DNA from: Chloroflexota bacterium
GTDB lineage: Bacteria; Chloroflexota; Dehalococcoidia; CAUJGQ01
Length of the DNA: 64,000 bases
NCBI GenBank assembly: GCA_036741355.1
Contig: DAINSK010000004.1
Location: forward strand, 65,289 to 129,288
Direction: 5' to 3'
The translations under genes were made by a program, and so were the position numbers. Below are positions 4,018 to 55,275 of the stretch, piece after piece (position 1 is the first letter of the stretch; every line of letters starts with the position of its first letter). Below the pieces are notes generated by a model, which saw only the letters and a program-made list of their open reading frames with translations, searched no databases and had not been told where the DNA came from.

Positions 4018-4884
4018 GTGGACTTCCTCATGCGCAGCCAGGGGCCCCTGCGGCCCCAGCAATGGCGGGCCCTAGACGACACCGTAATCCGAATCGCGCG
4101 GGAGTCGCTGACCGGCCGGCGGTTCATCTCCATTTTTGGTCCGCTCGGACCCGGTGTTCAGGCGGTTCCGGATGATCGTTTCCGCGTCAGCGAGGACGGT
4201 GACGTAGACCTGCTTGGTGAGAGCGACGCTGCCAGCATCCAACTCTCCGTCCGCCGCTACCTGCCGATCCCCTTGATCTACAAGGACTTCGTCTTACCCT
4301 GGCGGGATCTCGAGACGAGCTCGCAGTTCGGCAGCCCGCTCGACACCAGCGGTGCGGCCGCGGCCGCGGCCGCGTGCGCCCATACCGAAGACGACCTCAT
4401 CTTTAATGGCAACCTGGCCCTCGATCTGCCCGGTCTGCTCACCGTGGAGGGATCGCAGCGCCTCGCACTCGGCGATTGGAACGTCGCCGGCGAGGCGTTC
4501 GGTGCCATTGTCCAAGCCACGGAGGCGCTTGTTGGCGGGCATTTCTTCGGGCCGTTTACGGTCATCACCAGCCCCGTGTTGTTTGCGCAGTTGAATCGAA
4601 TGTTCGAGAACAGCGGCACACTGACCCTGGAACAGATCCAGAAACTCGTCCGTGGTGGCGTATATCAAACGTCGGCGCTGCCCGAAGGCACTGCGGTCGT
4701 TATCGCCGCCGCGGACGAAAACTTGGATCTGGCGCTCGCCCTGGACATGACGGTTGCTTATGAGGCCGCCGAAAACATGAACCACCGCTTCCGCGTTGTG
4801 GAAGCGGTGGTCTTGCGCATCAAACGCCCGCAATCGATCGTGATTCTTCAGAATCAGATATCGGCGCCGCGGCGGCGCTCCTAA
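4018..4884 (+). CDS. Family 1 encapsulin nanocompartment shell protein (linocin M18-like, HK97 fold)
   Basis: Clear similarity to known family-1 encapsulins (M. tuberculosis/T. maritima type): RRFISIFGPLGPGVQAV aligns to RRVVDV..P.G...AV, DDLIFNGN to EDRxIxxG, and GHFFGPFTVITSPVLFAQL to GVDGPYSxLLSxxxYTKV. Length about 285 aa. Start is GTG 4018 or ATG 4030. Confidence 0.8.
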   Translation: MDFLMRSQGPLRPQQWRALDDTVIRIARESLTGRRFISIFGPLGPGVQAVPDDRFRVSEDGDVDLLGESDAASIQLSVRRYLPIPLIYKDFVLPWRDLETSSQFGSPLDTSGAAAAAAACAHTEDDLIFNGNLALDLPGLLTVEGSQRLALGDWNVAGEAFGAIVQATEALVGGHFFGPFTVITSPVLFAQLNRMFENSGTLTLEQIQKLVRGGVYQTSALPEGTAVVIAAADENLDLALALDMTVAYEAAENMNHRFRVVEAVVLRIKRPQSIVILQNQISAPRRRS

Positions 4885-4920
4885 CCCGTGCCCTCGCGGC
4901 TTGAACGGGTTACTTTGCTG
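4883..4920 (+). terminator. Possible intrinsic terminator after the encapsulin gene
   Basis: Inverted repeat AACCCGT...ACGGGTT immediately after the TAA stop, followed by ACTTTGCTG. The U-tract is weak. Confidence 0.25.
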
Positions 4921-13504: not shown

Positions 13505-13530
13505 TCTGGTTGGCCTGCCGGTTCAGTAGC

Positions 13531-13551
13531 CCGCGCAGGCGGGCTTTGTCA
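13531..13551 (+). terminator. Possible intrinsic terminator downstream of the AI-2E transporter gene
   Basis: CCCGCGCAGGCGGG hairpin followed by CTTTGTC. Confidence 0.25.
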
Positions 13552-16622: not shown

Positions 16623-17219
16623 ATGGTGGATACGGCACCAGCACGCAGCGAACGCACAGCGGTCGCCGAGCCCGCTCCACGGCTTTTTACGGTCGACGAG
16701 TATTACCGCATGGTCGAAACTGGCATTCTTCACAATAACGACCGCGTCGAGCTGCTTGAAGGGGAGATTATTCAGATGGCGGCAATGGGCAGCCGGCATG
16801 CGGGTTGTATCAACAAGCTGAACAAACGGTTCAGCCACCGGCTTGACGGTCAAGCGCTAATCAGTATCCAGAATCCGTTGCGCCTCTCGTCAAGCTCGGA
16901 ACTCCAGCCCGACGTCATGCTCCTGCGCCCGCGGCCGGATGACTACGCTGAATCGCACCCGGAATCCGCGGACGTGTTGCTGCTAATTGAGGTTTCGGAT
17001 ACCACGCTTCGTTACGACCGAGATACGAAGCTGTCGCTGTACGCTAAGGCCGGTATTCCCGAAGTATGGATCTTCGACCTCGAAGGGGCGCGATTGTTGG
17101 TGCTCCGCAATCCAAGTGCGGACGGCTACGAGCAGGTCTTCACGTTCCGCGCCGGTAGCGCAGTCGCCCCCGCCGCATTTCCAGAGCTCGCGCTCAATGT
17201 TGAAGACATCCTCGGATAG
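16623..17219 (+). CDS. Uma2 family endonuclease (DUF820, putative restriction endonuclease-like fold)
   Basis: FTVDEYYRM...VELLEGEII.M...H...ELQPDV...EV.DTT...D...K...Y pattern typical of Uma2/DUF820. Confidence 0.8.
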   Translation: MVDTAPARSERTAVAEPAPRLFTVDEYYRMVETGILHNNDRVELLEGEIIQMAAMGSRHAGCINKLNKRFSHRLDGQALISIQNPLRLSSSSELQPDVMLLRPRPDDYAESHPESADVLLLIEVSDTTLRYDRDTKLSLYAKAGIPEVWIFDLEGARLLVLRNPSADGYEQVFTFRAGSAVAPAAFPELALNVEDILG

Positions 17220-28889: not shown

Positions 28890-29201
28890 CTAGTCCGAGT
28901 CCATGTAAGAGAGCGGAACGCGCATGCCGATAAGGAGCGCGCGGCGGGCTTCGGAGGTGGTTCGGGCTTCGCAGATTAGACAGATACCACCGGAAACAGT
29001 ATGCGTTTGGGTCGCAGGTATGTAGAAATAATCGCATACGGCGCAACGAGTCATGATGGACACCCCCGCTACTATCGCTCCTAATCGCTCATTGTGCACG
29101 GGAATGAAACGATATGCCGTGGAGATTACTGAATTAGCGTATTGCAGCCTCTCGGGGCTTACAAGGCCCAATCCATCGCTATTGTCTATCGCATGCATCA
29201 A
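28890..29201 (-). CDS. Hypothetical small Cys-containing protein in an AT-rich islet
   Basis: 103-aa ORF with A/T-rich third codon positions atypical for this genome. CAVCDYFY...CLICE. Confidence 0.2.
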   Translation of the reverse strand: MMHAIDNSDGLGLVSPERLQYANSVISTAYRFIPVHNERLGAIVAGVSIMTRCAVCDYFYIPATQTHTVSGGICLICEARTTSEARRALLIGMRVPLSYMDSD

Positions 29202-29273
29202 AATTCGTCACTGAGCGTCCCATTACGGCTACACTGCGAGCGTGGCAGTGATCTGCGGCGAACGGAGCGTGCA

Positions 29274-29780
29274 ATGTCGGACGAGACCCGGCGTCTAATC
29301 CGCGAGTTACAGCAGGCGATGAATCAAACGCTGGACAGCCTGTACGACCTGGCTGATGCGAAGCTCGACGAGGCATGCACCCACCCGTGCGGACGTGGGC
29401 CCGGACAGACGGCGTCGCTCTGGCACCTGTTGGCGAACGACATCGACCACGAAAAAATGCATGCCGCGCAGATTCTCTCTACCCGTCACGATCTGCGCCT
29501 GATGCAGACCCAGACCCAACGTCTCCTTGCTGGCTGGTTGCAGGAACGCGCGGCGCTCATAGGATCGTTGATCGGTTTGCCCGATGAGGCATTGGACAGC
29601 CGCGTGAAGGGCGAGTGGAGCATTCGAGAGGCGGTGGAGCACACGATGTTCTGGGAGCGAGACTCTATCCAGGCGGGTCTGCAGGATATTGCCGGGGGCG
29701 GACCCTGGCGTGCCGATCCCGGTCTAGAATACGGCGGCCCCGTACCGCGGCAGGCCGTCTCGGCATTCAAGGAATCATGA
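29274..29780 (+). CDS. DinB/YfiT-like (DinB_2) family metal-dependent protein
   Basis: ATG 29274 with GGAGCG RBS. Four-helix-bundle DinB_2-like pattern with His-containing motifs (LWHLLANDIDHEKMHAAQI). Confidence 0.6.
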   Translation: MSDETRRLIRELQQAMNQTLDSLYDLADAKLDEACTHPCGRGPGQTASLWHLLANDIDHEKMHAAQILSTRHDLRLMQTQTQRLLAGWLQERAALIGSLIGLPDEALDSRVKGEWSIREAVEHTMFWERDSIQAGLQDIAGGGPWRADPGLEYGGPVPRQAVSAFKES

Positions 29781-29788
29781 GCGGGGCT

Positions 29789-29958
29789 CCTAACCCTCGT
29801 CTCCCTTCCCGGTGCGGGAAGGGACGATATTTGGAAGCAGGGGTCCGGCCCGGTGGTGGTTCGGATTGGATGCATTGCCATGCGCCCCTACGGCAGTTGC
29901 AGCAACGGGACTCGTAGCAAGCTCCCCTTCCCTCTCAGGGAAGGGGACGGGGGTTAGG
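29789..29958. repeat. MITE-like element copy A: two inverted ~38-bp GC-rich hairpin arms with conserved outer end CCTAACCC(C/T)CGTC(C/T)CC flanking a ~95-bp spacer
   Basis: Left arm CCTAACCCTCGTCTCCCTTCCCGGTGCGGGAAGGGACG (29789-29826). Right arm CTCCCCTTCCCTCTCAGGGAAGGGGACGGGGGTTAGG (29923-29958) is its near reverse complement. Each arm contains its own internal hairpin. Confidence 0.5.
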
Positions 29959-30702
29959 TGTGACGGCGCGGGCAGCGATCGCTGCGATCGTATCCGGCTG
30001 GGCGCGGACGGTGCCGCAGTGCGGGCAAAAGTGCCAACTCGCGCGCAAGGGTTTGTGGCAGTCAGCGCAGCGTTTGGCAGCGCCGGGTACGCCGCGCACC
30101 GCGGCTATCGCTGCCGTGGCTTTCTCCAGAGTGACTCCCTGTCGGGCGAGGCTACTGACCATTTGAATATCGGAGAGGCGTAGAACGGCCAGAAGAAGGT
30201 GCTCGGTGCCGATGCTTGGATCGTGCCAGCGTCGGGCTTCATTCTTCGCCAGGCCGGCGAAGCGGCGGCCGCTTACCGCGCGGGACAGCACCGATACATT
30301 GAGCATCAGCGGACGGAGGGTCGGTTCGTTGACCCCCAAGCCGCGGAGGACGCGGGCTCCGAGGCCGTCGTCTGACCTTGCGAGCGCAAGCAGCACGTGC
30401 TCGGGATAGAGTACGGCATAGTCGGAAAGTTGCCAGGCGGCGAGCACGACCTGTGCAGCTTCCGTCGTGCAGATCTGCAGCCGCCATCCGGGCGGCGACG
30501 CCACCGCGCTCGCCGGAGGCGCGATACCGGGTGGCAGCACTTTGCCGATATAGCGGCTGACGGTGCGGGCCTTCACCTTCCAAAACACATACCAGTAGGG
30601 CCCGTGTCCGCCCTTGCGGTCGCAGGTCTTACACCCTTGCTTCCCGCAGCGCACAAGCTGCGGGCGGTAGGAGCGTCCCTCGAAGCTGAACGATGCGTCC
30701 AC
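29935..30702 (-). CDS. Clp N-terminal (Clp_N repeat) domain protein flanked by zinc-ribbon-like motifs
   Basis: Two Clp_N repeats (EHVLLALARSDDGLGARVLRGLGV, TEHLLLAVLRLSD). N-terminal CGKQGCKTCDRKGGHGPYWY and C-terminal CADCHK...CPHCG Cys clusters. The 3' end overlaps repeat copy A. Confidence 0.6.
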   Translation of the reverse strand: MDASFSFEGRSYRPQLVRCGKQGCKTCDRKGGHGPYWYVFWKVKARTVSRYIGKVLPPGIAPPASAVASPPGWRLQICTTEAAQVVLAAWQLSDYAVLYPEHVLLALARSDDGLGARVLRGLGVNEPTLRPLMLNVSVLSRAVSGRRFAGLAKNEARRWHDPSIGTEHLLLAVLRLSDIQMVSSLARQGVTLEKATAAIAAVRGVPGAAKRCADCHKPLRASWHFCPHCGTVRAQPDTIAAIAARAVTPNPRPLP

Positions 30703-35072: not shown

Positions 35073-35936
35073 TCAATCCCTGAAAGGCTCGAAGTGCCGC
35101 TTCCTGCGCTCAAAGCGCGTATAGCCGGTGTACCCGGCTTCGCGGGCTGCGGTCATCGCCAGGTCGAACGCCTGGCCGAGCCGTTCGGGCACGTGGGCGT
35201 CGGACGCCAACGTCACCGGAATGCCGGCTCGATTTGCAGCGCGGAGCAGCGCCGGCGACGGGTAAAGCTCGGCTACGGGTTTGCGCAGTCCATTGGTGTT
35301 GATCTCCAGTGCGCAGCCGCCCCGGACCGCGGCCGCAACGATCTCATCGTGCCATGGCCGGAAGCTGACCGGCTTGTGGCCGAAGATTTTGGGGACGTCG
35401 GGGTGCGCGAGCACGTCTGCAAGACCGCTGTCCGCGAGTTCGCCGATCATCCGGCCGTATTCAGCAAAAACGGTGTCTGCGTCACGCCTGTCCCATTCGT
35501 CGAGGTTCTCTTCTTCGTCGAAGCCGAACGCGCCGACCCAATGGACTGAACCCAATACGACATCCCAGGCATATGGTGCCAGGATTCCGCGAAGAACGTC
35601 GGCTTTGCCGGGGATCCAGTCCATCTCCATGCCGAGGAATACCGGTAAACCCTCGCTCTTCGCCTGTTCGATAAGCGACACGTAGTTGCTCAACGAAAGG
35701 TTGACGTGGTCGCGCCAGTACGCGGCAGCCGCGCCGGCCATGTGCGGATTTGGGTCGGCGTCCCACCAGCCCTGCAGCAGGTCGTACGCCTCGTGAAAGC
35801 GGAAGAGGTGTTCGGTGAAGACGACGCCGTCCAGCCCGTTTGCAAAGGCAGTATCGACGTAGAGCTGAATTCGCTCGCGGTCAACCGGGGGCTGCTCGCC
35901 GTGCGGCTGCAGATGGACGTGTGCGTCGACAAGCAT
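35073..35936 (-). CDS. PHP-domain histidinol-phosphatase (HisJ family)
   Basis: MLVDAHVHLQPHG... is a PHP N-terminal HxH motif. HisJ-like length (287 aa). Confidence 0.8.
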   Translation of the reverse strand: MLVDAHVHLQPHGEQPPVDRERIQLYVDTAFANGLDGVVFTEHLFRFHEAYDLLQGWWDADPNPHMAGAAAAYWRDHVNLSLSNYVSLIEQAKSEGLPVFLGMEMDWIPGKADVLRGILAPYAWDVVLGSVHWVGAFGFDEEENLDEWDRRDADTVFAEYGRMIGELADSGLADVLAHPDVPKIFGHKPVSFRPWHDEIVAAAVRGGCALEINTNGLRKPVAELYPSPALLRAANRAGIPVTLASDAHVPERLGQAFDLAMTAAREAGYTGYTRFERRKRHFEPFRD

Positions 35937-35962: not shown

Positions 35963-36203
35963 GGGGACCTCACCCCCTACCCCTCTCCATTGGCTGGCGC
36001 CAACGGAGAGGGGCGATTTCCGGTTACAGGTAGCGGGCTTGGATGTAGCGCGGGAACACTCGCCGTGGCCCGCGGTCGGCGCTCTCGATGGCCCGCCTTC
36101 GGAAATGGATCCCGCGGAACGGCCGCCCCGGTCCGATCAGCACACAAAGATCGCCCCCTCTCCATCGCATCGCGATGGAGAGGGGGACGGGGGGTGAGGT
36201 CTC
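35963..36203. repeat. MITE-like element copy B: inverted ~50-bp hairpin arms (outer end CCTCACCCC..CCCC, inner hairpin CCCTCTCCAT...ATGGAGAGGG) flanking a ~135-bp spacer
   Basis: Left arm 35963-36015 (GGGGACCTCACCCCCTACCCCTCTCCATTGGCTGGCGCCAACGGAGAGGGG). Right arm 36152-36203 (CGCCCCCTCTCCATCGCATCGCGATGGAGAGGGGGACGGGGGGTGAGGTCTC). Intergenic between hisJ-like and the SBP gene. Confidence 0.5.
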
Positions 36204-36210
36204 GCCGGGC

Positions 36211-38070
36211 CTACGCCGTCACGTACATGTAATCGTACATGCGCCAGAAGATGTTCCAGGTTGGCACCGCTGCGCCGCTCTTGTCCTTCGGCATGCCGCC
36301 GATGTTCGGCTTCAGCAGACCGAGGTTCTGCGGGTAGTGGGTGAAGATCGCGCCCGCCTGCGCCGCCAGGATCTGGTCCGCCTGCTGGTACAAATCAAAC
36401 CGCTTCTTCGGGTCTGTCTCGCCGGCTGCCTGAACGACCAGCTTGTCGAAGTTGTCGTCGTGCCACGCCTGCCGGTGGCCGGAGTCGCCGCCGGACTTCG
36501 ACCAGAACACAAGGTACTGCTCGTCGTTCGGGTCCGGGTAGTCCTCATACCAGCGCAACCAGATCAGTTGCAGCTTGCGTTGGTACATGCGCCCGTAGAC
36601 TTCCTTGCGATCGCCGATCTCGTGATCGATCTTCATGCCCAGGTTGTCCTGGAGCATCTGGATGATCGCGTCGCCGGCAGCGGCTGCGGCGTCGTCCTCG
36701 GTGCGCTGCGTCAACGTGATCTTGGGCCAGTTCTTACCGCCCTCGTACGGCGTGCCCACAAGCTGGGCCTTTGCCAGTGCCGGATCGAACTTGGTGAACT
36801 CGTCGTACTTGTTCGGGTTAAAGCCGGGCGTCCCCGGTGGTATGAACGTATACGCCGGGGAGCCCAGGCCCTGCAGGACGTTCTTGACGATCGAGTCGCG
36901 GTCGATGGCGTGGGCCATCGCCAGCCGAACCTTGGGGTTGGTGAACGGCTCTTTGTCCGCTTCGGGCACGAGGTACCAGGTGCCGTCGAGGAAGTACTTG
37001 ACGACCTGCTTGCTCTCATTGGCGTCGCTCAGGATACGCTTGTAGTCGCCCGGACCCACGCGCGCTACCCAGTCGATTTCGTTGTTCTCGTATGCCGCCG
37101 TGGCGGCGTCGGCTTTGATGATCGGCCGCTGGATCGTCGTCAGGTGAATGTTTTTCGCGTTCCAGTAGCCGTCATGCTTCTGGAGCTCATAGCTCTTGTC
37201 GTGGTCCCACTTGGTGAGCTTGTAGGGGCCGTTGGAGACGATATTACCCGGCTCGGTCCACTTGTCGCCGAACTTTTCGACGGCGTCCTTGTAGGCGGGC
37301 AGTGCCGAGTTATAAGCCAGCAGCGCCGGTAAGTAACCGGCCGGATGCTCGAGCGTCATCTCGAGCGTGTAGTCGTCGACGACCTTCAGGCCGAGCGTCT
37401 TGTCGTCGGGTATCTTGCCGGTGTTGTACGCTTCGGCATTCTTGATGTCGTAAAGGAAATTGGCGTACGCGTCCTTCGTGTCGGGATTGAGCTGCCGACG
37501 GAACGAGTAATCGAAGTCTTTGGCCGTCACCGGCTGGCCGTTGGTCCATTTGCTGTCCTTGCGGATCTTGAACGTGTAAACCGTCCCGTCCGGGCTGACA
37601 GTGAAGCTCTCCGCCATATCCGGCACCGGCTCGAGGTCGGGGTTGAACACCAGCAGCCCCGCAAACACCTCGGCGTCCCCCTGGCAGTAGAGGTCCTTGT
37701 TATAGTCAAAGCTCGAAGGCTCGCTCTCGTTTTGTTGGTTAGTGCGGAAGACCTGGTTTGCCGCTAGTTTCACATTGGCGGGCAATGGACCCGGGCCAAG
37801 TACCTTCGCGCCTGCAACTGGACTGCCGCCCGCTGCGCTCGCATTGGCGGCGGGCGCCTTCGGGGCAGCGTTGTTTGTCGTCTTGGTGCTGTTGTTATTG
37901 CTGCTGCCGCAGGCAGCCAGACCGGCGGCGCCACCCGCTGCAGCGAAGATCAGCAGCGCCTGGCGGCGATCGACCTTGATCGCGCGGAGCCGCTTCTGGA
38001 ACATGCGAAGCTGCTCGGCTTCGTCGTAGACAACGCCAGGTTCTTGACCGTCCAATTCACCGTTACTCAC
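36211..38070 (-). CDS. ABC transporter substrate-binding protein, family 5 (peptide/nickel, DppA/OppA-like), Tat/lipoprotein signal
   Basis: GTG 38070 with GAGGAG RBS. RR-containing n-region, AAGLAAC lipobox, SBP_bac_5 features along 619 aa. Confidence 0.85.
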   Translation of the reverse strand: MSNGELDGQEPGVVYDEAEQLRMFQKRLRAIKVDRRQALLIFAAAGGAAGLAACGSSNNNSTKTTNNAAPKAPAANASAAGGSPVAGAKVLGPGPLPANVKLAANQVFRTNQQNESEPSSFDYNKDLYCQGDAEVFAGLLVFNPDLEPVPDMAESFTVSPDGTVYTFKIRKDSKWTNGQPVTAKDFDYSFRRQLNPDTKDAYANFLYDIKNAEAYNTGKIPDDKTLGLKVVDDYTLEMTLEHPAGYLPALLAYNSALPAYKDAVEKFGDKWTEPGNIVSNGPYKLTKWDHDKSYELQKHDGYWNAKNIHLTTIQRPIIKADAATAAYENNEIDWVARVGPGDYKRILSDANESKQVVKYFLDGTWYLVPEADKEPFTNPKVRLAMAHAIDRDSIVKNVLQGLGSPAYTFIPPGTPGFNPNKYDEFTKFDPALAKAQLVGTPYEGGKNWPKITLTQRTEDDAAAAAGDAIIQMLQDNLGMKIDHEIGDRKEVYGRMYQRKLQLIWLRWYEDYPDPNDEQYLVFWSKSGGDSGHRQAWHDDNFDKLVVQAAGETDPKKRFDLYQQADQILAAQAGAIFTHYPQNLGLLKPNIGGMPKDKSGAAVPTWNIFWRMYDYMYVTA

Positions 38071-43490: not shown

Positions 43491-44018
43491 ATGGAGCCTG
43501 CTGTACTCGTTCTTAATCAGAATTACGATCCGATCAACGTGTGTAACGCTCGCCGTGCCTTCACGCTCCTGTACGGGGGCAAGGCCGAAGTGCTGGAACA
43601 CGGCCTTGGCGTTCTTCGCAGCCCTAGCTTTGCGTTTCCGCTTCCTTCCGTCATCCGCCTGGTCTACATGGTGAAGCGGCCCCGTCCGCAAATGCGCCTG
43701 ACCAGGCGCGAAGTCTTCATGCGCGACCGCTACACCTGCCAGTATTGCGGCCGCCAGGCGCGCGAGTTGACGCTCGATCACGTCTTTCCACGCCACCGTG
43801 GCGGACGGCATACCTGGGAGAACCTGGTGGCGGCGTGCAAGGGCTGCAACCACCGGAAGGCCGGTCGCACGCCGTCAGAGGCGCGGATGCTGTTGAGCAG
43901 GGCGCCCTACCGGCCCAGAGTGAGCAGCTATTACCTGTTCTACCAGTACCTCGACGTCCAGCACGAATGGCGCAAATTTATCCCGGGCTGGGACGAAGCC
44001 AGCATCGGCATCTCTTGA
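43491..44018 (+). CDS. HNH endonuclease family protein
   Basis: CQYCGRQ...LDHVFPRHRGG...NLVAACKGCNHRK HNH motif. Confidence 0.75.
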   Translation: MEPAVLVLNQNYDPINVCNARRAFTLLYGGKAEVLEHGLGVLRSPSFAFPLPSVIRLVYMVKRPRPQMRLTRREVFMRDRYTCQYCGRQARELTLDHVFPRHRGGRHTWENLVAACKGCNHRKAGRTPSEARMLLSRAPYRPRVSSYYLFYQYLDVQHEWRKFIPGWDEASIGIS

Positions 44019-51509: not shown

Positions 51510-51564
51510 CTCCCGGGCTTCGTCGCGGGGGCCCTTTCCCCCATCCCGGCGAGCCCCCAATCCC

Positions 51565-51745
51565 CCGTCCCCTTGCCCCCAATGCTGGGGATAAGGGGCG
51601 ATCTCTGGGTGCTGGCTTCGGACGCCATCTAGCGTCTTGAATGCTGAGGCTCTCGCGCCCGGTCTCACGATCAACCGCCTAAGCTCCCTCTTGCCCCTAG
51701 AATTGGGGGAAAGAGGGCCGGGGAGTTAGGGGGCCCGGCTCCGCG
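51565..51745. repeat. MITE-like element copy C: inverted hairpin arms with outer end ..CAATCCCCCGTCCCC / GGGGAGTTAGGG flanking a ~85-bp spacer
   Basis: Left arm about 51565-51608 (CCCCAATCCCCCGTCCCCTTGCCCCCAATGCTGGGGATAAGGGG). Right arm about 51693-51745 (CTCCCTCTTGCCCCTAGAATTGGGGGAAAGAGGGCCGGGGAGTTAGGGGGCC). Same organisation as copies A and B. Confidence 0.45.
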
Positions 51746-51809
51746 CCATCTTGACAGGCCCTGCCTCCGCCCGCCAAAATTTGGCGCACCCATAGAGGAG
51801 GTCCGCGTT

Positions 51810-54154: not shown

Positions 54155-55183
54155 TCAGCCTGCCGGTCTGTCTGGTGTCGGCGTCGCGGTAGGACGGGCG
54201 GCCGGGGCCGGCTGAACCGCGGGCACCGCGGGCGAGGCTTCGGCAGCAGGTGGGCGCGACGGCGTAGTTGACGGCGCCGTGTTTGTGGCCGCGGCCGGCG
54301 CTGGAGCGGGGCTAGGCTGAGCGGGAGCGGTCCGCTGCAACACGTAAACGCCGTCGATCCACTTGTAGACCTCGGTGGTGGTCGTGTTCGTTACCCCCGC
54401 GGCCGGCAAATTGGCCGCTGAAACCGCGCCCGTGAGGATGATTTCGTCGCTATCCTTAACGGTCGCGATCAACTCGAACAGGCCATCGCCGCCGATGTCC
54501 TGGAACACCCATTCGACGTCTTCGGCAAATCGTTCAACATAACCGGCGTTGCTGGTGTCGGTTGACCGGAAGAAATCAGTACGGGACCAGACCGTGGCGA
54601 GCGTTAAGTCGTAGATCTCGACCACCGTTTCCGTTTCGGCGAGGCTCGGGCTGACGAGCCCGTCGGCCGTGTAGCCGACTGTGAAGACTTTCCAGTCCTG
54701 GGCCGGCGGTGCCGCGAGCGCCGAAATGTCAGTCAGATTTCGCGCGAGCCAGAGGTCGTCCGGCGACGTTAGCTGCCGCCCGGGATAGTCGGGTAGGCCG
54801 ATAAGCCACTGGCGACCGTCCCACTGTAAGTAGTTAGTCAACAGCCATACGGTGCTACCGCCCTGGCCGTCGTAGATCGGGTAGACCGTCGCAATGAACA
54901 CCACGTAGCCGCCGGGCGCGTCCGGCATGTCGGTCCTGGCCCACTTGCCGGGCAACTGGGTGTTGTTCCTGACCGACGCGGGCAAAAGCGTGCGTACGGC
55001 GGTGTCGTTGTCGATCGCGGGCGCGGCAGAGACTGCAGACAACGCGGCAGCGGCGGTCGGGCTCGGCTGGGTCTGGCCGGCAGTCGTAGAAGGTGGGAGC
55101 GACACTGCCGCCACAGCAAATATGGCCGCAACGGCGAACGCCGGCAGCAGCCAGAGTCGGTGACCGGGCAGGATGGGGTTCAT
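54155..55183 (-). CDS. Hypothetical secreted protein with Pro/Ala/Thr-rich C-terminal tail
   Basis: Signal peptide (MNPILPGHRLWLLPAFAVAAIFAVAAVS), globular middle and low-complexity PAPAPAAATNTAPSTTP tail. Confidence 0.55.
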   Translation of the reverse strand: MNPILPGHRLWLLPAFAVAAIFAVAAVSLPPSTTAGQTQPSPTAAAALSAVSAAPAIDNDTAVRTLLPASVRNNTQLPGKWARTDMPDAPGGYVVFIATVYPIYDGQGGSTVWLLTNYLQWDGRQWLIGLPDYPGRQLTSPDDLWLARNLTDISALAAPPAQDWKVFTVGYTADGLVSPSLAETETVVEIYDLTLATVWSRTDFFRSTDTSNAGYVERFAEDVEWVFQDIGGDGLFELIATVKDSDEIILTGAVSAANLPAAGVTNTTTTEVYKWIDGVYVLQRTAPAQPSPAPAPAAATNTAPSTTPSRPPAAEASPAVPAVQPAPAARPTATPTPDRPAG

Positions 55184-55275
55184 CGGGTAACTCCTTCAGT
55201 GCGGGCCCACCCTGGTGGCCCGCACTGAAGGATAGCATAGGGTTTCAGGTTGCTGCCCGAGCAGAACTCGGCGCC

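Follow-up and report, generated by a model that had tools for sequence, protein, structure and literature searches.

The closest described relatives of the elements reported here are the G/C-rich class II intrastrand triplex motifs (TM) of Escherichia coli, known since the 1990s as BoxC repeats and also described as potential intrastrand triplex (PIT) elements or TMECO (Holder et al. 2015, Nucleic Acids Research (NAR) 43:10126, PMC4666352, where the BoxC descriptions of the 1990s and the work of Maher and co-workers from 2000 are cited). Published work centres on E. coli and other proteobacteria. In these motifs, a pyrimidine stem, a loop, a purine stem and a 3-nt loop are followed by a second G-rich segment, which can pair antiparallel (reverse-Hoogsteen) to the purine stem in G.G:C, A.A:T and T.A:T triads (PMC4666352). 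E. coli K-12 carries five inverted pairs, four of which face inward; the units are intergenic and show an excess of strain-to-strain variability, with internal deletions that leave a hairpin (PMC4666352). Here we describe three intergenic sites, A, B and C, in a stretch of 64,000 nucleotides of contig DAINSK010000004.1 (in the following, the window), whose paired hairpin arms are motifs of this kind.

A preliminary description of the window had presented the three sites as a family resembling miniature inverted-repeat transposable elements (MITEs). The sites are real, at or within a few bases of the positions given there, and they share the inverted-arm organisation that had been noticed: a left-hand C-rich block, the reverse complement of that block on the right-hand side, a spacer in between, and a perfect or near-perfect GC-rich hairpin within each block. 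The quoted termini were also found, namely CCTAACCCCCGTCCCC (right arm of A, as reverse complement), CCTCACCCCCTACCCC (left arm of B) and CAATCCCCCGTCCCC (left arm of C), together with the hairpin of A, CCCTTCCC-loop-GGGAAGGG. Read on the G-rich strand, each unit consists of a pyrimidine stem, a loop, a purine stem, a linker of 1-4 nt and a G-rich third strand, the latter mirroring the purine stem such that G stands against G and either A or T against A. This third strand is what had been called the conserved outer terminus; the adjacent GT/AC(G) forms the second loop, and the Watson-Crick part corresponds to the arm-specific hairpin. The identification of the arms as motifs of the class II, G/C-rich intrastrand triplex type (BoxC/PIT/TM) is firm. 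By their sequences, the window units fall into the broader triplex-motif class and not into the proteobacterial subtype. They are of a known kind, in a lineage and with a consensus that lie outside the published description, and reveal no new system.

The third strands face outward in all three window pairs, and the composites are non-coding and 170-235 bp in size. In the case of the right arm of C, the purine stem is mirrored by the third strand at 12/12 positions (G.G, A.A and T.A). The triad fit of the B cores is 10/10 and 9/9, the latter for the arm on the side of the PHP gene (GGAGAGGGG against GGGGTGAGG), and that of the A cores is 8/9 and 7/8. The DinB-side arm of A has a stem of 10 with no Watson-Crick mismatch and two Hoogsteen mismatches according to the triplex-motif scanner described below. 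The left arm of C is the weakest among the six, and the motif is recovered there only with a 7-nt stem.

The asymmetry of the stems (GGAGAGGGGG, GGGGAAAGAGGG) allows a mirror repeat to be distinguished from a direct repeat, and the asymmetric mirror repeat rules out a simple direct repeat. For this comparison, 228 pyrimidine/purine hairpins were gathered without any condition on their flanks, 212 of them with asymmetric purine strands. The 3' flank of these 212 followed the mirror rule better in 108 cases and the direct rule better in 32. When the 106 hairpins with a G-rich 3' flank were compared with their own flanks, the score was 8.57, against 8.21 (sd 0.04) for permuted flanks and a maximum of 8.35 in 1000 permutations. 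Among the genome matches listed, CCTAAC termini were paired with CCTTCC or CCTTTC hairpins in all 8 classified cases (the hairpin of a ninth is of the TCCC type); of 81 CCTCAC termini, 79 were paired with CCTCTC hairpins (Fisher p=6e-10). Within the window, TTA goes with AA in A, TGA with AGA in B, and AGTTA with AAAGA in the right arm of C. Triplex pairing predicts such a covariation pattern, and no transposase-end or terminator model does. The terminus had been taken for a terminal repeat of the transposase type; it is instead a mirror-repeat third strand that covaries with the hairpin. An alternative in which the third strand pairs with the pyrimidine stem in Watson-Crick fashion was considered as well and rejected, since the asymmetric stems show a mirror of the purine stem and not a copy.

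The motif also stands out statistically. The 16-mer CCTMACCCCCGTCCCC, allowing at most 3 mismatches, matches the window nine times against 1.81 expected, and 0 of 100 shuffles reach nine, which speaks against the GC-rich coincidence that had been named as a possible objection to the outer terminus. The terminus is not simply shared between copies, as had been described: it covaries with the hairpin of its own arm. Three additional 16-mer matches (39156, 45565 and 57880) have no adjoining hairpin, and none of them was detected by the motif scanner. This scanner, written to the definition of Holder et al. 2015 (PMC4666352), found five units with stems of at least 9 nt (10-12 nt) in the window, which are five of the six arms, and almost nothing else; the sixth, the left arm of C, is irregular. 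The simulated background gave one unit in 20 first-order Markov windows, i.e. about 0.05 per window. Composite folding was more stable than that of shuffles at the three sites, with z-scores of -2.7, -6.5 and -3.4. The claim that the arms match within a copy holds for A (identity 0.82) and B (0.77) and is weak for C (0.65), given a between-copy mean of 0.62 and a maximum of 0.69. The inverted repeat runs 6-8 nt past the third strand. Comparison of the A, B and C spacers with each other gave no mutual similarity. No described RNA family fits sites A-C: no Rfam family reached the gathering threshold, and on 29500-52000 there were sub-threshold chance matches only, with E up to 5.

The window is metagenomic in origin. 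Related genomes allowed us to follow the sites through divergence: close relatives retain the elements, and relatives at 72-79% protein identity are without them. Homologues of window proteins carry labels of Dehalococcoidia or of Chloroflexi metagenome-assembled genomes (MAGs), and the JGI metagenome contig Ga0120169_000302 is 99.97% identical to the window across 22 kb. As the PHP gene product had no record in the exact-protein look-up, homologues were used instead. Site B occurs in L203, a strain whose PHP protein is 94% identical and whose contig breaks inside the hairpin, and also in L204, a relative at 81%. When L204 is compared with the window, the stems, the linker and the third strand of the PHP-side arm are identical and the hairpin loop alone differs, while identities are 57% in the spacer, 40% in the leader and 79% in the PHP coding sequence. 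At this distance the neighbouring non-coding DNA can no longer be aligned, yet the triplex-forming segments have not changed. Within the B spacer, L204 is conserved solely at the start on the side of the solute-binding protein (SBP) gene (CGATCTTTGTGTGCTG, minus strand). A small RNA gene in the spacer was considered and rejected, as the spacer is so poorly conserved. Site B is absent in a 73% relative with the same gene order (L205), where a 254-nt spacer without the motif holds an ordinary GC hairpin after the transporter gene. In a 72% relative (P0007) the gap is 115 nt, absence being judged there from the intergenic length alone.

In the case of site A, the most informative genome is L208, which is 95.5% identical to the window over 4.76 kb. 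Approximately window positions 29844-29942, about 100 nt, are missing in it, with the junction in a CCCC run. This deletion removes the Clp_N-side hairpin and most of the A spacer, so that CCTAACC, one hairpin and GGTTAGG remain, and the C-terminus of the Clp_N protein changes from PNPRPLP* in the window to PNPPPRFPTIVPSRTGKGAEG*. Furthermore, the similarity of L208 to the window ends no more than about 10 nt outside the DinB-side third strand. Past this outer edge, L208 (4811-5338) holds a glycine-cleavage P-protein-like gene without a counterpart in the window, which has the DinB gene there (left of 29786). The two strains constitute a natural pair with a slippage-type internal deletion and a gene-order break exactly at the element edge. 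Two 76% relatives (L209/L210) are without the motif at site A and carry a terminator-like hairpin at this position. Site C is nearly identical in a 98% strain (L214), in which one substitution repairs a stem mismatch of the left arm, and it is absent from a 79% relative (L212). About 14 nt outside composite C, a TTGACA and an A/T-rich block (CCAAAATTTGGCGCACC, window 51751-51782) are kept in L212 (about 4880-4915) without the composite; this conserved block is likely the promoter of the molybdopterin oxidoreductase gene, left intact by element C.

Strain variability exceeding that of the surroundings was seen at site A, in the one pair of L208 and the window, while site C is nearly unchanged in L214. 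Taken as a set, these alignments show elements that come and go as wholes at genus level and whose triplex-forming segments stay constant once present. Slippage-type deletion and rearrangement can take place at them, as has been reported for E. coli, and the strain pair gives natural-variation support to that published idea of instability. Three independent metagenome contigs, from this species or from relatives of it, begin inside a motif hairpin (L002 1-35, L203 1-22 and L204 1-25), one of them with a poly-G run. Assemblies appear to break at triplex-motif elements, and any census based on short-read bins would be biased by this.

The unit is widespread. A 16-mer scan with one genome per species gave at least 120 loci, in most of which the 16-mer runs directly into CCCTCTCCC-loop-GGGAGAGGG. 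Among the matches listed, 69 of 120 are third strands of the full motif, in at least 10 phyla by labels read from the record titles. The full motif accounts for 29 of 36 listed matches in Chloroflexota, 12 of 16 in Bacteroidota (among these, the isolates Prevotella veroralis, P. vespertina and Hymenobacter fodinae), 5 of 10 in Acidobacteriota, 4 of 7 in Armatimonadota, 4 of 5 each in Planctomycetota and Cyanobacteriota, and 3 of 12 in Pseudomonadota. Actinomycetota, with 0 of 13, serve as an internal control for chance matches in GC-rich DNA. The proteobacterial literature on the motif is thereby joined by an uncultured Chloroflexota-like lineage and, by the 16-mer, by at least 10 phyla, whereas a lineage-specific MITE would not be expected to show the same unit sequence in many phyla. 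On 122 loci (892 kb), the scanner found 190 units. Adjacent units no more than 400 nt apart face outward in 45 cases, against 9, 7 and 4 for the other three arrangements, and 17 of these 45 outward pairs are compact, with one hairpin flanked by both third strands. By comparison, metagenome loci anchored on gpsA (785 kb) hold 13 units, i.e. 1.7 per 100 kb, three of them in L124, while the window has 5-6 in 64 kb; of the loci in that scan, L123 and L124 were useful as relatives and 78 more served as background.

The interior of outward pairs varies. In a Prevotellaceae MAG (L067 3760-4038), the spacer is a tandem array of about five units of ~47 nt, each opening with the half hairpin CCCCTYTCCAAAAAGAGTGGCTTGCGCCGAACGTCCCGTTGCTGCT. 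In three Prevotella or Bacteroidaceae loci (L078 7505-7776, L074 5304-5539 and L063 1799-2028), the pairs enclose 160-200 nt of ordinary-looking, possibly coding DNA rather than a repeat interior. Possibly, any DNA can be enclosed by the arms.

The comparison with E. coli is best made at the lldD-trmL spacer of K-12, which reads CCCTCACCC-taa-CCCTCTCCC-tca-GGGAGAGGG, then, after 60 nt, CCCTCGCCCC-tcc-GGGGAGAGGG-ccg-GGGTGAGGGG. This pair sits right after the stop codon of a gene, and its third strands point outward, in the same layout as the window pairs. Shared with the E. coli elements are the order of the parts, the intergenic placement in inverted pairs, the outward layout with a spacer as at lldD-trmL, and the variation among close strains, including internal deletions that leave a hairpin. 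The differences concern the details. Window stems are 10-12 nt long and asymmetric (CCCCTCTCC, CCCTTCCC); linkers are AC(G), TAG or CCG, compared with TTA or CCG in E. coli; loops reach 12 nt; and spacers measure 87-140 nt, compared with 16-60 nt. The host is a Chloroflexota-like uncultured organism, whereas the E. coli units are proteobacterial, and outward pairs dominate in the window and in the cross-phylum sample, whereas four of five E. coli pairs face inward. BLAST of one arm against E. coli genomes and of composite B against plasmids gave no match, with low-complexity filtering and the short query as the probable cause. Longer motif strings were found in the literature only in eukaryotic papers.

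The positions of the composites, their parts and the neighbouring genes are collected in Table 1. All three sites lie directly past the 3' end of a gene, with a 24-nt overlap with one gene end at A, where the two neighbours converge. The preliminary description had let this copy overlap about the last 10 codons of the Clp_N gene; the overlap amounts to 7 codons and the stop (29935-29958), the third strand of the right arm encoding the final residues PNPRPLP and the stop codon lying inside the hairpin loop. Its spacer range was 85-135 bp; between the motif units, the spacers measure 98, 140 and 87 nt. Just outside the left arm of C lies a degenerate fragment, probably what is left of another arm, which hints that local rearrangements have recurred here.

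Table 1. Window positions of the three composites, their arms and spacers, and the adjoining genes. Unless stated otherwise, arms are given in the order pyrimidine stem, loop, purine stem, linker, third strand.
Feature	Position	Strand	Description
DinB-family gene	29142-29780	+	3' end faces site A
Site A	29788-29959		between convergent gene 3' ends
A, DinB-side arm	29788-29824	-	minus strand: TCCCTTCCCG-cac-CGGGAAGGGA-gacg-AGGGTTAGGA
A, spacer	29825-29922		98 nt, no similarity to B/C spacers
A, Clp_N-side (right) arm	29923-29959	+	TCCCCTTCCCT-ctc-AGGGAAGGGGA-c-GGGGGTTAGGT
DUF6788/Clp_N/zinc-ribbon gene	29935-30702	-	3' end overlaps site A
PHP-family histidinol-phosphatase-like gene	35073-35936	-	site B lies before it
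Site B	35966-36201		
B, PHP-side arm	35966-36013	-	minus strand: CCCCTCTCCGT-(12 nt)-ATGGAGAGGGG-tag-GGGGTGAGGTC
B, spacer	36014-36153		140 nt
B, SBP-side (right) arm	36154-36201	+	CCCCCTCTCCAT-cgcatcgcg-ATGGAGAGGGGG-acg-GGGGGTGAGGTC
ABC-transporter solute-binding protein gene	36211-38070	-	site B lies after it
AAA/R3H gene	end 51509		site C lies after it
Degenerate fragment	51523-51543	-	TCGCGGGGGCCCTTTCCCCCA; just outside C left; 76% complementary to purine stem and linker of C right
Site C	about 51557-51737		
C, left arm	51557-51598	-	third strand CCAATCCCCC, linker GT, irregular hairpin CCCCTTGCCCCC-aatgc-TGGGGATAAGGGG
C, spacer	51599-51685		87 nt; begins with CGATCTCTGGGTGCTGG, a sub-terminal motif also in B, L204 and L008
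C, right arm	51686-51732	+	CCCTCTTGCCCC-tagaattg-GGGGAAAGAGGG-ccg-GGGAGTTAGGGG
Molybdopterin oxidoreductase large-subunit gene	start 51810		site C lies before it

As to how such elements could act, the window contributes the sequence logic of a purine-motif intrastrand triplex, and the steps are modelled on published experiments with the E. coli units, in which an isolated single G-rich strand forms a stable triplex and blocks polymerase, both in vitro (PMC4666352). When single-stranded during replication, repair or transcription, the G-rich strand would fold into a hairpin with the third strand in its groove. This fold would be transient, on single-stranded DNA, and could hinder polymerases, leading to stalling, slippage, deletion and rearrangement. 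On this view, the elements would be self-maintaining hot spots located at the 3' ends of genes, rather than insertions driven by a transposase. A secondary, incidental role of the hairpins at transcript ends may be added to this, for which their position after genes and one terminator-like arm leave room. The mechanism in vivo is not firm. We put the probability of the identification as BoxC/PIT/TM together with a DNA-structure mode of action at about three in four.

Several observations weigh against this combined view. Four of the six arms have two Hoogsteen mismatches at the stem edges, the left arm of C is irregular, and the triplex fold of the window arms is a prediction from their sequence. 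The strict TMECO consensus CCCTCNCCC N3-6 GGGNGAGGG N3 GGGNGAGGG has 0 matches in the window, while the same pattern gives 2 matches at the E. coli lldD-trmL locus and 6 at four other loci. The double-stranded form of the E. coli element showed no triplex signal, and in vivo footprinting detected none (PMC4666352). The evidence for instability comes from one strain pair at one site. Perfect arm conservation could stem from gene conversion between copies rather than from selection. Finally, the covariation counts are counts of sequences and not of independent events, and the cross-phylum set was seeded with a single third-strand sequence.

Other explanations were weighed against the triplex motif, although the more probable ones, transposase-driven mobility and a primarily RNA-level role as terminator or stabiliser, are not fully exclusive of it. 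We regard it as rather unlikely that the composites are non-autonomous transposons (MITEs, or elements like the repetitive extragenic palindromes (REP) and bacterial interspersed mosaic elements (BIME)), with arms moved by a transposase encoded elsewhere, e.g. a single-strand (Y1/HUH) enzyme. The small, non-coding composites do share with MITEs their terminal inverted repeats, which here run longer than the third strand, and their variable presence, whole composites being present or absent between relatives. Moreover, related genomes contain multi-copy composites of a constant ~160 bp with a conserved spacer at different loci: in a Chloroflexi MAG (L008), two 158-bp composites are reverse complements of each other including the spacer; a 63% gpsA relative of the window (L124) has two full-length copies of the L008 composite and one partial match; and L104 has a full-length match to the L008 composite model, to which window C gives a weak full-length match (E 5e-6). 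A sub-terminal GGGGCGATCTnTGGGTGCTGG is common to B, C, L204 and L008. Families of composites that keep their interior thus do spread within this phylum, and a DDE transposase lies ~1.3 kb downstream of the Clp_N gene in L209. The MITE-like label is therefore partly right, for a structured, dispersed, non-coding family with such composites in relatives and with presence and absence, and the hallmarks of transposition find no support in the window. A target-site duplication was seen at none of the three sites; no direct repeats of at least 3 nt were found at their inverted-repeat ends, which are not fixed by a precise empty site. The three window spacers are mutually unrelated, and the arms differ between copies yet match within A and B, which is unexpected for recent transposition of one master element. 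No cognate transposase was found in the 64 kb: the 50 window open reading frames (ORFs) covered by Pfam scans or gene tables contain no transposase domain, eight being without any Pfam match. In addition, the window arms stay constrained long after insertion, conserved well beyond neutral flanks; recognition of ends by a protein leaves the same unit in at least 10 phyla and the mirror covariation unexplained; and the E. coli motifs showed no link to mobile elements (PMC4666352). The comparison with REP/BIME and REP doublets (REPINs) fits the architecture, since in either case short, GC-rich hairpins carry a conserved flank, are dispersed and numerous, are located after genes and form inverted doublets round a spacer. 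It does not extend to the sequence: the window units are without the constant GTAG-type tetranucleotide (linkers ACG, C, GACG, TAG and CCG), their flank is a 10-14 nt mirror of the stem, and no domain of a REP-associated tyrosine transposase (RAYT) or other Y1 transposase was seen in the 64-kb window. REPs are also lineage-specific, whereas the window unit sequence is shared across phyla. Ends of the IS200/IS605 type, which the preliminary description had brought up, were rejected, because the hairpins of such ends are directly oriented on a single strand and the window showed no gene of this kind. An unlikely variant is that the outward inverted pair is a selectively maintained cross-phylum element serviced by a dedicated protein, which could be a single-strand transposase that was domesticated, or a factor binding triplexes or hairpins. 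Such a system would account for the unchanged triplex segments amid decay, the occurrence of the 16-mer with its hairpin from Prevotella to Chloroflexota, and the spread of fixed-size composites; if true, BoxC-type repeats would be a second REP/RAYT-like system.

That the arms act on RNA, as bidirectional, factor-independent terminators or as hairpins that stabilise 3' ends, with an incidental C-/G-rich flank, is likewise unlikely. Such action would suit the position of all three sites directly after a gene 3' end, with A between convergent genes, and the CGAT(A/C)T-T-rich sequence that follows the arm beside the upstream gene. The SBP-side hairpin of B (36186-36154, minus strand), followed by CGATCTTTGT, passes a terminator scan, and relatives without the element (L205, L209/L210) carry an ordinary GC hairpin and T-rich sequence in its place. 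However, this is one arm of six, the remaining five having at most 3-4 T after the hairpin, and the scan total of 4 falls below a shuffle expectation of 5.5. A terminator has no need for a 10-14 nt mirror-repeat flank that covaries with the stem; the sequence past the hairpin is not T-rich in other phyla; the window also uses ordinary terminators, e.g. at 13527-13550; and E. coli PIT elements have no promoter or terminator activity, as cited in PMC4666352. It is very improbable that G-quadruplexes on the G-rich strands (or i-motifs on the C-rich ones) are the relevant structure instead of the triplex. Several G runs per arm, e.g. GGGAAGGGGACGGGGGTTAGG, would suit them, but outside the Watson-Crick hairpin most arms have just two or three runs of 3 or more G, and a quadruplex fails to predict that A or T in the flank mirrors the A positions of the purine stem. 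Lastly, a mere coincidence of GC-rich sequence beside ordinary hairpins has a next to negligible chance of accounting for the likeness of the termini. The motif is low in complexity, and in Actinomycetota the listed 16-mers do occur by chance without a hairpin. Coincidence is nevertheless refuted by the shuffle tests and by recurrence across genomes: the shuffles never reach the observed count, five units stand against the ~0.05 expected, the unit recurs at 69 other genome loci among the matches listed, and its arms are conserved in relatives.

The ordinary terminator at 13527-13550 is also the sole Rfam match to CRISPR-DR28 in the window (37.3 bits, E 0.004). It is an ordinary GC hairpin followed by TTTGT, after an AI-2E transporter gene, and a CRISPR was rejected there because no repeat array is present.

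Some further features were noticed. A perfect 16-bp hairpin at 55192-55232 (TCCTTCAGTGCGGGCC-9 nt-GGCCCGCACTGAAGGA), unrelated to the triplex motif, lies directly upstream of the start of a minus-strand ORF (54155-55183) that has no Pfam match. An encapsulin shell protein (Linocin_M18, 4018-4884), a putative endonuclease of the Uma2 family (16623-17219) and an HNH endonuclease (43491-44018) are encoded in the window, none of them adjoining a triplex-motif site. A homologue of the AAA/R3H protein (P0244) is 963 aa long and has intein/LAGLIDADG Pfam domains, and is thus a version of that housekeeping gene with an intein.

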